NCBI GenBank assembly: GCA_965242695.1
Contig: CBDESU010000002.1
Coordinates: 1 to 64,000, forward strand
From: Cenarchaeum sp.
Lineage (GTDB): Archaea > Thermoproteota > Nitrososphaeria > Nitrososphaerales > Nitrosopumilaceae
Reading direction: 5' to 3'
DNA length: 64,000 nucleotides
Shown: positions 61,363-63,451 of the stretch, in pieces
How the letters are laid out: each line of letters begins with the position of its first letter
Position numbering within the stretch: position 1 is the first letter of the stretch
Made by a program: the position numbers and the translations under genes
Notes under the pieces: generated by a model
Database searches by the model: none
What the model was told of the DNA's origin: nothing
What the model saw: only the letters and a program-made list of their open reading frames with translations

Positions 61363-61710
61363 CTACGGCCGCCGCCCGCCCGGCGCGTCCAGCCCGTTGT
61401 GGAAGCACGTCCGCTCGCCCATGTGGCAGGCCGGCCCCGCCGGCTCTACCTGGTAGATGACGGCGTCCGAGTCGCAGTCGACCAGGATGCGCCTTACGGC
61501 CTGCGTGTTGCCCGACTCCTCGCCCTTCATCCACAGCCTGCCGCGCGAGCGGCTCCAGAACCAGGACGATCGCGTCGAGGCGGTGCGCTCCAGCGACTCG
61601 CGGTTGGCGTAGGCGAGTGTGAGCACCTCTTTTGTTTTTGCGTCCTGGACGATGACGGGGACGAGGCCGCCGCCCTTGCCAAAGTCGATCTCGTCCAGCC
61701 TCTTTTCCAC
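61363..61710 (-). CDS. hisI: Phosphoribosyl-AMP cyclohydrolase
   Basis: GLVPVIVQD, FWSRSR..LW.KGE.SGN.Q, DCD.D, GPACH...TCF. Confidence 0.96.
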   Translation of the reverse strand: MEKRLDEIDFGKGGGLVPVIVQDAKTKEVLTLAYANRESLERTASTRSSWFWSRSRGRLWMKGEESGNTQAVRRILVDCDSDAVIYQVEPAGPACHMGERTCFHNGLDAPGGRRP

Positions 61711-62098
61711 GGGCGGGCCGGGCGGGCGGGCCGTAATATTTCATGGGGTACGGGGCGGCGATGCGGAGCCTGAGGGGCGCGTCCGCTCCCCGCGTCACCC
61801 GCGTCGGGCGGCATCCGCGGCGCGGGCGGCCGCACGTTTTGGCCCGGGCCGCGGCGCGCCAGCGGCGCCCCGCATCAAAGGGCAGGCGCATCTCGCCGGC
61901 AAGCCCCTCCGAACCGCTGTCGCATGCAGGTTCCGAGCGTCCCGTCCCGCGTCCGGCCCGCCTGCAGCACCGCCGATCGCCGGGCTGCGCATGCCTGGGG
62001 GTGGCGGCCCGCAGTCCAAGCCGCCCGTCCGCCGGAAAATCGGGCCGATGCGGCCACCCTACAGGCAATCTTTATCAACCCCCGATCGGCGGGCATGC

Positions 62099-62191
62099 CG
62101 GCGACGGCGGGAGTCGAACCCGCAAGGCACTTGGTTGTGCAAGTGCCGGCGTGGTATCAGCACGCTGGGCTACCGATTGCCCATCGTCGCC
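62099..62191 (-). tRNA. Non-canonical tRNA: GAU anticodon, long variable arm, G73
   Basis: Minus strand reads GGCGACG AT GGGC AATCGGTA GCCC A GCGTG CT-GAT-AC CACGC C GGCACTTG CACAAC CAAGTGCC TT GCGGG TTCGACT CCCGC CGTCGCC G. All five stems are fully Watson-Crick paired; CCA is not encoded. Confidence 0.85.
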
Positions 62192-62217
62192 ATTTTTGCC
62201 AACAGCAGATGATTGAC

Positions 62218-62240
62218 ATACCTTGCGGCAGGGTATAATA
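62218..62240 (-). promoter_or_regulatory. Candidate TATA (TATTATA) overlapping an imperfect palindrome upstream of the tRNA
   Basis: ATACCTTGC-G-GCAGGGTAT dyad at 62218-62236 adjoining the AT-rich element at 62234-62240. Confidence 0.4.
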
Positions 62241-62602
62241 CGGCATTTGGCGGGCCGGCGCCGCGCGGCGTGCGCAGCGGGGCGGGAAGGTTGGAGGAGG
62301 ATAATGCTGGCGGGCGGCGAATATCCTGCGCCCGTCGACGGGATGCGCCAGGCCCGCCCCATGCGGCGGCAAGGAGCGTGCCTGCCCAGGCATCCTGCGA
62401 GAGCCCGCCCCCCCCCATCCGCCCGCCCGCCGGCAGCTTGCCGCGGCACAGGGCCCCCGCAGGCGCGCAGGGGGATGCCCGGCGGTCGGCGCTCTGCACG
62501 TGCACGGGGCTGGGACGAGCCGAGCGCTGGCGCGCAGGCGGCACCCCCTTGCACGGCCGCACTGCATGATAGACATAATTGATCAGCGGGCCGCGGCCTG
62601 GC

Positions 62603-63451
62603 ATGGGCGGGCAGGGCGCGGTGGCCGTCGTCACCGGCGCCTCGTCGGGCATCGGCCTAGAGACGGCCCTGCTTCTGTCCGGCTCGGGCTATGCGGTGTA
62701 CGGCTGCTCGAGAAGCCCAGAAAGGATCAAGACGGCCGCGGCCGGCAGGGACGGCGGCGCCGGCATCAAGGCGGTCAAGATGGACGTAGACGACACGACG
62801 AGCGTCAACAGGGCCGTCGCCGGCGTGCTAGGCGAGGCCGACAGGATCGACGCGCTCGTCAACTGCGCAGGGTACGCCCAGATCGGGGCGATCGAGGACA
62901 TGACGATCGGCGAGATGAGGGGCAACATGGACACCAACTTTTTCGGGACCGTACGGGCTACAAAGGCCGTCGTCCCGGCCATGCGCAGGCAGGGGGGCGG
63001 CCGCATAGTCAACGTGAGCGCCGTGGCGGGGCGCACGGGGTTTGCGTTCGGGTCGGCGTACGTGGCCTCAAAGTTCGCCGTCGAGGGGCTGACCGAGTCG
63101 CTGCGGCACGAGCTGAGGCGGTTCGGCATACGGGTGTCGACCGTCGAGCCCGGGGTCGTCAGGACCGCGTTCCACGGCAGGATGGACACGAAGGCCCCAA
63201 AGGGCTCGCCGTACGCGGACATGGTGAAGAATCTGGTCAAGAGATCGGAGCGGCTGTACGCGAACGGGGCCGACCCCAAGGACGTGGCCCGGACCATACT
63301 CGAGGTGCTCGGCGAGGACGATCCGGCCCCGCGCTGCGCGGCAGGCAGGGACGCAAGGGAGCTCTTGGAGGAAAAGGCGAGGAGGACCGACGCGCAATTT
63401 GAAGAGTACGTGCAGGACATCTACGACGACGTCATGAAGCTTGGCGACTAG
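62603..63451 (+). CDS. Short-chain dehydrogenase/reductase (SDR)
   Basis: TGASSGIG, LVNCAG, catalytic YVASK, VEPG. Confidence 0.95.
   Translation: MGGQGAVAVVTGASSGIGLETALLLSGSGYAVYGCSRSPERIKTAAAGRDGGAGIKAVKMDVDDTTSVNRAVAGVLGEADRIDALVNCAGYAQIGAIEDMTIGEMRGNMDTNFFGTVRATKAVVPAMRRQGGGRIVNVSAVAGRTGFAFGSAYVASKFAVEGLTESLRHELRRFGIRVSTVEPGVVRTAFHGRMDTKAPKGSPYADMVKNLVKRSERLYANGADPKDVARTILEVLGEDDPAPRCAAGRDARELLEEKARRTDAQFEEYVQDIYDDVMKLGD

Follow-up and report, generated by a model that had tools for sequence, protein, structure and literature searches.

Transfer RNAs in which the anticodon and the amino acid identity disagree are known from bacteria (allo-tRNAs), from nematodes (nev-tRNAs) and from some yeasts. 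Bacterial allo-tRNAs, described from Clostridia, Proteobacteria and Acidobacteria (Mukai et al. 2017, PMC5389517; PMC7609411), are extra genes beside a full canonical tRNA set, and they occur in multiple and sometimes damaged copies, some near mobile elements. They combine a long variable arm and G73, which is the SerRS identity set (PMC7609411), with non-Ser sense anticodons that include those of Leu and Ile, and their 12-bp acceptor branch is divided 8/4 or 9/3. Serylation has been demonstrated for some of them, and in E. coli those whose anticodon reads Leu codons insert Ser (PMC7609411, PMC5389517). Nematode nev-tRNAs (Hamashima et al. 2012, PMC3333845) place a class-I anticodon, Ile among others, on a class-II body. 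They coexist with canonical tRNAs in many copies within a single lineage, have Leu identity, are charged with Leu in vitro, and carry mainly the anticodons CCC and UAU. In CTG-clade yeasts and in Ascoidea (PMC6041473) a Ser-type tRNA bearing the Leu anticodon CAG takes the place of tRNA-Leu or competes with it, and CUG is reassigned or ambiguous genome-wide, as experiments have proven. The table of a 2014 review has no mismatched tRNAs for Archaea (PMC4033280), and our full-text literature searches found no report of an archaeal tRNA with mismatched anticodon and identity.

We describe a gene from Cenarchaeum, an ammonia-oxidising archaeon that lives with sponges, located in a window of 64 000 nt (the whole stretch of DNA that was analysed), that carries the anticodon GAU on a class-II-type body, together with the gene family to which it belongs. 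As with allo-tRNAs, the family members of the host genome are extra genes beside the full canonical set, and the family has a long arm and G73 under non-Ser sense anticodons including Leu and Ile and comes in multiple and damaged copies, some near mobile elements. Unlike allo-tRNAs, they are archaeal, their anticodons are skewed toward A35 (Ile, Phe, Leu), and they have a conserved downstream TATA-like box; the acceptor branch of the candidate is 7/5 (or 8/5). With nev-tRNAs the family shares the class-II body with class-I anticodons including Ile, the coexistence with canonical tRNAs, the many copies and the single lineage, whereas nev-tRNAs are eukaryotic with Leu identity and the candidate is archaeal with G73. 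Two paralogs in the same genome carry the CAG anticodon of the yeast tRNA-Ser. Canonical archaeal tRNA-Ser resembles the family in G73, G1-C72, the long variable arm and the 7/5 geometry; the Cenarchaeum subfamily differs from it in an arm of 8 bp rather than 5-6 bp and in non-Ser anticodons. By analogy the candidate would work most like an allo-tRNA or a nev-tRNA, yet it is a member of neither group.

The candidate gene

The candidate is a class-II-type tRNA gene of 93 nt on the minus strand at 62099..62191, with G1 at 62191 and G73 at 62099. Its anticodon GAU, tRNA positions 34-36, was read directly from the sequence at 62156..62158 (minus strand), in the loop CUGAUAC. ARAGORN calls a tRNA-Ile(gat) at 62097-62192, and Rfam model RF00005 matches with 47.8 bits (gathering score 29, E 3e-9) over its complete model positions 1-71; run on all 64 kb at default settings, the Rfam search loses the gene at its speed filters. 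The acceptor stem, as read from the sequence, has 7 bp (GGCGACG/CGUCGCC) and is followed by A8 U9. The D arm has a 4-bp stem (GGGC/GCCC) and an 8-nt loop, AAUCGGUA; the anticodon stem has 5 bp (GCGUG/CACGC), with U33, A37 and C38 in its loop; and the T arm has a 5-bp stem (GCGGG/CCCGC) and the loop UUCGACU. The variable region of 25 nt (62124..62148, minus strand) consists of C44, an 8-bp stem GGCACUUG/CAAGUGCC closing a 6-nt loop CACAAC, and two unpaired U. The universal tertiary nucleotides are kept (G18 G19, U33, a purine at 37, and the UUCGA of the T loop). The acceptor/T geometry is 7/5 and would be 8/5 if U-1 paired with G73. An earlier, sequence-only reading of this DNA had proposed a 93-nt cloverleaf with fully paired stems, GG in the D loop, a TTCGACT T loop, A8, C38 and G73; the sequence shows each of these features, and the gene is on the minus strand.

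The minimum-free-energy fold is the same cloverleaf at -50.3 kcal/mol; none of 200 shuffles was as good (z -5.4), and the cloverleaf including the 8-bp variable arm makes up 68% of the fold ensemble. A sequencing error in the anticodon, which the reading had named as a danger, is excluded. Contigs of three studies span the anticodon and a unique flank (from 61800 or 61844), with 0 differences in X1 record 1, 0 in X4 record 16 and 1 in X6 record 23, and since all three keep GAU beside the unique flank, GAU is no error. Where contigs have other letters at 62156 and 62158, they stem from paralogs.

Host genome and canonical tRNAs

The host genome (G000) has 3.89 Mb in two contigs (C1 and C2) and 67% G+C. 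No tmRNA was found in it, and several of its tRNA genes have introns. The archaeal host supposed earlier is a Cenarchaeum-like member of the Nitrososphaerota, judged from an aldehyde dehydrogenase encoded in the window whose closest match is an uncultured Cenarchaeum (83%), followed by other Nitrosopumilaceae. The window sequence occurs in sponge metagenomes.

ARAGORN with introns allowed gave 108 calls on the whole genome, mostly false, and we applied it to single loci only. The separate canonical tRNA-Ile(GAU) that the reading had called for lies at C1:253025-253113; it is a class-I tRNA of 54.8 bits with A73, a short variable loop (AGGCC) and a 14-nt intron after position 37. Because this gene exists elsewhere in the genome, the candidate is an additional GAU tRNA. 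The canonical tRNA-Ile(GAU) of a second family-bearing genome, G032, likewise has A73. The host also has a canonical tRNA-Phe(GAA), four tRNA-Leu (CAG, UAG, GAG and CAA, all A73) and four tRNA-Ser (G73); the canonical counterparts of GAU and GAA, Ile and Phe, both combine A73 with a short variable loop.

A SerRS N-domain was matched once in each of four family-bearing genomes (G000, G004, G104 and G032) and once in the family-free G001, and the same 4-5 class Ia synthetase matches were found in the genomes with and without the family. Because these match sets are equal, none of the five genomes scanned has a dedicated synthetase paralog of the SerRS or class Ia type. In the host the SerRS N-domain match is at C1:80701-80997, and the LeuRS gene lies at C2:1296647-1298737.

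Paralogs in Cenarchaeum

The sequence-only reading had treated the candidate as a single gene. It is instead one of a multi-copy family which, in the genus Cenarchaeum, mostly carries Leu anticodons. Four copies of its body are present in the host genome: the candidate (GAU), a tandem pair at C1:407285-407377 (CAG) and C1:407462-407554 (UAG), and a fourth at C2:1303050-1303142 (CAG). Their first 26 and last 25 nt are identical, whereas the best canonical host tRNA matches at only 15 of these 51 positions. All stems of the four are free of mismatches, and all four have G73. Seven copies are found in the sister species G004, a genome of 3.7 Mb from the same genus, with the anticodons GAG, GAU, UAG (two), AAG (two) and, in a damaged copy, GAG. 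No copies at this level were found in three further genomes of the genus.

Of the 318 pair cells in the alignment of the 11 copies from both species, 98.4% hold a standard pair, against 35-55% in slid-partner controls. Pair 27:43 is C:G in six copies and G:C in five, and the variable-arm pair 48:63 is A:U in four, G:C in four and unpaired in three. Compensatory changes affect 2 of the 29 pairs, a number not above that of shuffles (449/500), so the structural support rests mainly on conserved pairing. Variation is focused on positions 34 and 36 and on a hypervariable arm loop. All four bases occur at wobble position 34 in these near-identical copies, and A35 is fixed. A8 replaces U8 in 10 of the 11 copies, and A37 accompanies GAU in both Cenarchaeum GAU copies.

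The bodies are near-identical between the two species, although coding DNA at the one locus compared, that of the short-chain dehydrogenase (SDR) and hisI, is only ~80% identical. Their GAU copies occupy non-orthologous sites, and each has the 27:43 pair of its own species. Either copies are homogenised within a genome with the anticodon kept, or GAU arose twice. This recurrence at non-orthologous sites with a species-specific pair argues that GAU is maintained or re-created and is no accident. Some copies are damaged: the G004 copy at 2562k has C33 and an altered 3' end, and in G104 two copies (L036 and L037) have broken D arms and a third (L039) has a 6-nt loop.

Distribution in the Nitrosopumilaceae

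Two models were run over 151 Nitrosopumilaceae genomes: R1, built from the 11 copies, on which the candidate scores 115.5 bits, and the looser R2. With the latter we further searched a class-level sample in which 70 genomes come from other Nitrososphaeria families. Three unpublished genomes are among the 151, G115 and G116 in the sets of both models and G101 in that of R2, and they enter no statement other than these denominators. R2 is too general, and canonical tRNA-Ser(GCU) reaches ~61 bits; because of such scores its matches were inspected individually. Only top-scoring matches were inspected, so the census is a lower bound.

We found at least 43 non-canonical class-II genes, verified with ARAGORN, in at least 16 Nitrosopumilaceae genomes (G000, G004, G104, G120, G065, G032, G130, G097, G168, G090, G069, G021, G084, G023, G132 and G263) and in two MAG records found by pattern. 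All identifiable records that bear family members are MAGs. The distribution is patchy and leans to larger genomes. Among the 43 genes the anticodons are GAU (11), GAA (10), CAG, UAG and GAG (four each), UAA (three), AAG (two), and CAA, UUC, CGG and GGA (one each), with one unreadable; A35 is present in 39 of the 42 readable ones. G73 is present in 41 of 43 genes, the exceptions being A73 in L212 and a damaged copy in which the position is missing. GAU copies occur in nine genomes of five genera, on differing bodies. The bodies vary by genus, with acceptor stems GGCGACG, GUUGGCG, GGCGUGG and others, and the variable arm ranges from 4 to 9 bp. Some members in genus g18 (L216, L217) have both a Ser-type D arm and an encoded CCA. 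Homologues with compensatory changes in other Nitrosopumilaceae, which the reading had suggested looking for, exist; among the 11 Cenarchaeum copies the count of covarying pairs does not exceed that of shuffles.

No family member was found among the 18 top R2 loci of the 70 genomes from other Nitrososphaeria families; 17 of these loci are canonical tRNA-Ser and one is a tRNA-Asn with an inserted stretch. Two family members had no match in phage records. A T-arm/acceptor 25-mer had no exact match in genome contigs or in viral contigs, and a degenerate GTTGGCG-type pattern was found in five stretches of four genome-contig records and in no viral contig. Matches to a 19-mer in metagenome contigs (12 stretches) were rejected as chance, and none of them matched R1.

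The candidate belongs to a previously undescribed family of non-canonical class-II tRNAs that is multi-copy and, as a lineage-restricted group, confined to Nitrosopumilaceae in the genomes searched. That the gene and its family exist, and that the candidate is a genuine, well-folded extra tRNA gene, is well supported.

Flanks and promoter-like boxes

The conserved unit extends from ~-62 to +45, with unrelated sequence outside those limits. Flank alignments place a BRE/TATA-like box, AAGGTATGTCAA in the candidate (62213..62224, minus strand) and AAAAGGTATAAA in paralogs, at ~-33 to -22 from G1, a spacing equal to that of the TATA boxes in the upstream sequences of all host canonical tRNA genes. 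A second upstream box, CCGTATTATACC (62232..62243, minus strand; ~-52 to -41), is kept in 9 of 11 Cenarchaeum copies by eye. Between the boxes and the gene lies an A-rich leader, AAAAAU (62192..62197, minus strand), whose U-1 is invariant in all 11 copies and could pair with G73; in members from other genera position -1 is U or C, always pairable with G73. In some copies leader and trailer pair in single-sequence folds, inconsistently among copies.

Downstream, at +20 to +34, is a TATA-like box, GTTGATAAAGATTGC in the candidate (62065..62079, minus strand) and TTATAAAA(C/G) in paralogs and other genera. The TATA-like stretch, 20-35 nt past G73, reads GTTGATAAAG in the candidate and TTATAAAAC in most copies. 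No such box is present 3' of any canonical tRNA gene of the host genome.

On the plus strand, 62213-62239 holds a near-consensus TTGACA-15-TATAAT. The bacterial origin that this motif brought to mind is ruled out by the absence of a tmRNA, the archaeal intron-bearing tRNAs and the Nitrosopumilaceae relatives.

Genomic neighbourhood

The neighbours of the candidate are hisI (61363-61710, minus strand) on the downstream side, which has its own conserved promoter region, and the SDR gene (62579-63451, plus strand) on the other. Synteny is kept at this locus in G004, where the genes are ~80% identical in DNA, the spacer is ~330 nt shorter and no family copy is present; the G004 GAU copy sits at another locus. 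The two spacers are too diverged in alignment to fix insertion boundaries. Other host copies are found near synthetase genes, adjoining ThrRS and upstream of AlaRS/LeuRS, and one G004 copy is 3.8 kb from MetRS. IS66 transposases adjoin three G104 copies and one G004 copy, the G032 copies sit among accessory genes (Kelch, TPR, Fic, DUF3800), and a 2206-aa gene begins 170 nt past one G004 copy. No protein partner is conserved consistently across the loci examined, and no toxin-antitoxin link of the family was found here. The suggestion that the tRNA is a decoy for PIN or HEPN RNases encoded nearby gained no support, as neither PF01850 nor PF05168 has a match at E<=0.001 within the window; a 258-aa ORF 2.5 kb from the candidate has a PIN match below threshold.

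Amino acid identity

The canonical tRNA-Ser and tRNA-Leu that we read in Nitrosopumilaceae follow one rule at the discriminator: every tRNA-Ser has G73 and every tRNA-Leu A73. Because of this difference Ser is favoured for the family. Archaeal and eukaryal LeuRS require A73, and changing A73 to G switches identity to Ser; archaeal LeuRS also reads bases at the tip of the variable arm. Set against the canonical archaeal tRNA-Ile(GAU), the candidate has a 25-nt variable region instead of a 4-5-nt loop, and G73 instead of A73. It has the G73 and long arm of an archaeal tRNA-Ser without the Ser-type D arm or similarity of body, and it lacks the A73 of an archaeal tRNA-Leu.

The Ser-like class-II body proposed in the sequence-only reading therefore stands in its long arm and G73, but the body is not a typical tRNA-Ser body. 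The D arm in Cenarchaeum is class-I-like, its stem being 4 bp and its loop 8 nt, where host tRNA-Ser has 3 bp and 11-12 nt, and the body departs from host tRNA-Ser also in A8, in A15/U48 and in the two unpaired bases 3' of the arm. The models do not separate Ser from Leu. R1 scores overlap (host tRNA-Ser 21.7-38 bits, host tRNA-Leu 20.5-32.6 bits), and R2 scores (tRNA-Ser 45-62 bits, tRNA-Leu 42-55 bits) appear to lean slightly to Ser, likewise without separating the two. From G73 and the long arm, the candidate probably has serine identity.

Mechanism and alternative explanations

The reading that we prefer, and hold tentatively, is that the candidate is an archaeal analogue of the allo-tRNAs that is serylated and misreads hydrophobic codons. 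The mechanism that we infer by analogy would run as follows. The archaeal-type promoter box of the candidate would drive its transcription, the RNA would go through the processing of other tRNAs, and CCA would be added post-transcriptionally. The single SerRS would charge it through G73 and the long variable arm, ignoring the anticodon. The charged tRNA would compete with canonical tRNA-Ile at AUC/AUU, its paralogs at CUN, and its relatives in other genera at UUY. The outcome would be the replacement of hydrophobic residues by Ser, at a low level or conditionally. Ser at Ile, Leu or Phe codons should be costly, which counts against missense reading.

A wider form of the proposal, which we consider rather unlikely, is that Nitrosopumilaceae, especially host-associated ones with enlarged genomes, keep Ser-accepting tRNAs for Ile, Phe and Leu (rarely Pro and Glu) codons. 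These would serve a programmed, probably conditional, hydrophobic-to-Ser mistranslation across the proteome, with an 8/5 branch possibly diverting them from normal elongation.

The main rival, possible if on the unlikely side, is that the gene is a tRNA-like module without a part in translation, carried in a dispersed and possibly mobile cassette of ~200 nt made up of the two upstream boxes, the tRNA and the downstream box. The RNA or DNA of such a cassette could have one of several uses: promoter or insulator, RNase P or RNase Z processing signal, target for integration, or decoy that draws enzymes which attack tRNAs. The sharp limits of flank conservation at ~-62 and +45 fit this idea, as does the downstream TATA-like box, common to genera and absent from canonical tRNA genes. 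So do the non-orthologous sites of the copies, with hisI-SDR syntenic in G004 and free of the unit, and the settings of several copies: the IS66 neighbours of three G104 copies and one in G004, the accessory genes in G032, and the 2206-aa gene 170 nt off in G004. The patchy distribution and the odd A8 and D arm point the same way. Yet the full cloverleaf and the anticodon-loop rules (U33, purine 37) are retained in most copies, and a position 34 that takes four bases beside a fixed A35 resembles decoding-related diversification. Nor were terminal repeats, target-site duplications or a consistently linked transposase seen at the copies, and neither phage records nor, with exact patterns, viral contigs gave a match.

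Charging with leucine, as in nev-tRNAs, is improbable. The NAG paralogs would then be oddly shaped extra tRNA-Leu, and Ile codons would receive Leu from the GAU copy, a mild change. The Leu CUN anticodons of 9 of the 11 Cenarchaeum copies suit this idea, and host Leu(UAG) is second best under R1 (32.6 bits). A15/U48 and the two unpaired bases 3' of the arm resemble features of some tRNA-Leu. The nev-tRNAs themselves provide a precedent (PMC4033280, PMC3333845, PMC4300185). It has to contend with G73 in 41 of 43 family genes, where every canonical tRNA-Leu read has A73, and with a hypervariable arm-loop sequence.

We give no more credit to decaying or neutral duplicates, that is, a tRNA pseudogene family without present function. 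Several copies are indeed damaged (G004 2562k; G104 L036, L037 and L039) and occurrence is patchy, but the candidate and three paralogs have no stem mismatch, the bodies are near-identical across two species whose coding DNA at SDR-hisI is ~80% identical, and there are compensatory changes as well as conserved promoters.

Very improbable is charging matched to the anticodon, by IleRS for GAU and PheRS for GAA, which would make these genes special-purpose isoacceptors, for example for non-ribosomal uses of aminoacyl-tRNA. The A35 skew (39/42) and the A37 that goes with GAU in both Cenarchaeum copies speak for it, but the canonical Ile and Phe counterparts have A73 and short loops, and no enzyme that uses aminoacyl-tRNA is consistently found beside the copies. 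Neither G73 nor a long arm is a known identity feature of IleRS or PheRS.

The least credible explanation is that the long arm is a non-canonical intron, spliced out to leave a class-I tRNA; precedent comes from the many non-canonical tRNA introns described for Thaumarchaeota (10.1101/614032), and if 41-44 paired with 61-64 instead, the 5-nt loop CGGUU would remain, but that pairing has three of four central pairs and no inner helix, breaks the anticodon and T stems, and is one of about a dozen equally poor motifs per sequence, a chance frequency. In agreement with the sequence-only reading, our own crude scripts found no credible bulge-helix-bulge around the arm, none having a full 4-bp helix with a flanking helix, at a strict setting under which the relaxed motif of the canonical Ile intron of the host goes undetected too. 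In the candidate the 8-bp helix of the arm runs on without bulges, arm length across the family (4 to 9 bp) follows no bulge pattern, and splicing would yield class-I tRNAs with Leu anticodons and G73 that match no known identity. From the motif search and the fold ensemble we judge such an intron unlikely.

Significance

Genes of this family are now labelled tRNA-Ile, tRNA-Phe or tRNA-Leu from the anticodon alone, a point for annotation. If the wider proposal of programmed mistranslation is true, Archaea would have their first natural missense-tRNA system, and a conserved, multi-copy archaeal family with its own promoters would place such code ambiguity in all three domains. Genetic-code engineering would gain new tRNA scaffolds from such a family, with archaeal identity rules and a very long arm, and tests of adaptive, regulated mistranslation in symbionts would have a definite list of genes to start from (43 so far).

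Detection of long-arm tRNA genes

The candidate, a G73 long-arm tRNA gene with anticodon GAU (window 62099-62191, minus strand), scored 47.8 bits against Rfam when a 501-nt stretch was searched, and the Rfam scan of the full window (1-64000) at the gathering threshold returned no tRNA at all, the candidate included. The speed filters of Rfam can hide long-arm tRNAs of this kind. Two other unusual tRNAs were met. One, from another family of Nitrososphaeria (L180, G186:C14:3705-3799), is a class-I tRNA-Asn(GUU) whose variable region is extended by ~27 nt of inserted sequence, probably a non-canonical intron. The other (L025, G158:C1:1908149-1908233) is a class-II tRNA with anticodon AAG and an encoded CCA; A34 is unusual in archaea. 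Because it has A73, it is left out of the family count.

Acceptor end

Position -1 is U or C in all copies examined (window 62192 in the candidate) and could pair with G73, which suggests, from sequence, that the acceptor stem may be 8 bp (8/5) in at least some family members. Three members (L019, L216 and L218) have 3′ ends of the form G-N-CCA, each with U at -1.

Flanking sequences

A TATA-like box (TTATAAAA / CTATAAAAAAG) lies 20-35 nt past the 3′ end of family tRNAs from several genera. It occurs at the candidate (window 62065-62079, minus strand) and in the 3′ flanks of eight further loci (L016, L017, L034, L035, L037, L038, L021 and L023), and has no counterpart in the 3′ flanks of the canonical tRNA genes of the window's genome. 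It may bind a protein or act as a promoter, either antisense or for the gene that follows. Upstream of the candidate, a perfect bacterial-type TTGACA/TATAAT pair with a 15-nt spacer (window 62213-62239, plus strand) overlaps the upstream boxes of the tRNA; the host being an archaeon, we regard this pair as coincidental.

IS66-family transposase genes adjoin three copies in G104, another genome with family members, and lie ~2.3 kb or less from one copy in the sister Cenarchaeum species (L017:1662-3095, L036:1618-2841, L038:2083-3087 and L163:16232-17884). At L036 the conserved downstream box is gone, its place taken by the insertion sequence, which directly borders the tRNA. The sister species also has a 2206-aa ORF with EPTP-repeat matches (L163:5939-12559), starting 170 nt 3′ of a family tRNA.

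Neighbouring synthetase genes

Aminoacyl-tRNA synthetase genes fall within ~4 kb of three of the nine family loci of the two Cenarchaeum genomes, against ~0.4 expected by chance on a rough estimate. In the window's genome, ThrRS (C1:407792-410101) lies 237 nt from the tandem tRNA pair (C1:407285-407377 and C1:407462-407554), in divergent orientation, and AlaRS (C2:1299451-1302294) and LeuRS (C2:1296647-1298737) are also near a family locus, as is MetRS in the sister species (L165:10160-12064). In G104 and G032, the class Ia synthetase genes are not linked to family loci in this way.

Possible exchange between copies

Loci L021 (genome G130) and L023 (G032) have orthologous flanking genes, with 77-81% amino-acid identity. 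Their family tRNAs match in the acceptor arm, the D arm and the T arm, whereas the anticodon arms (GAU versus GAA) and the variable arms are wholly unlike; the GAU version is found in G032 at another site, L129. Together, these differences and the GAU version at L129 point to exchange among copies of the family.
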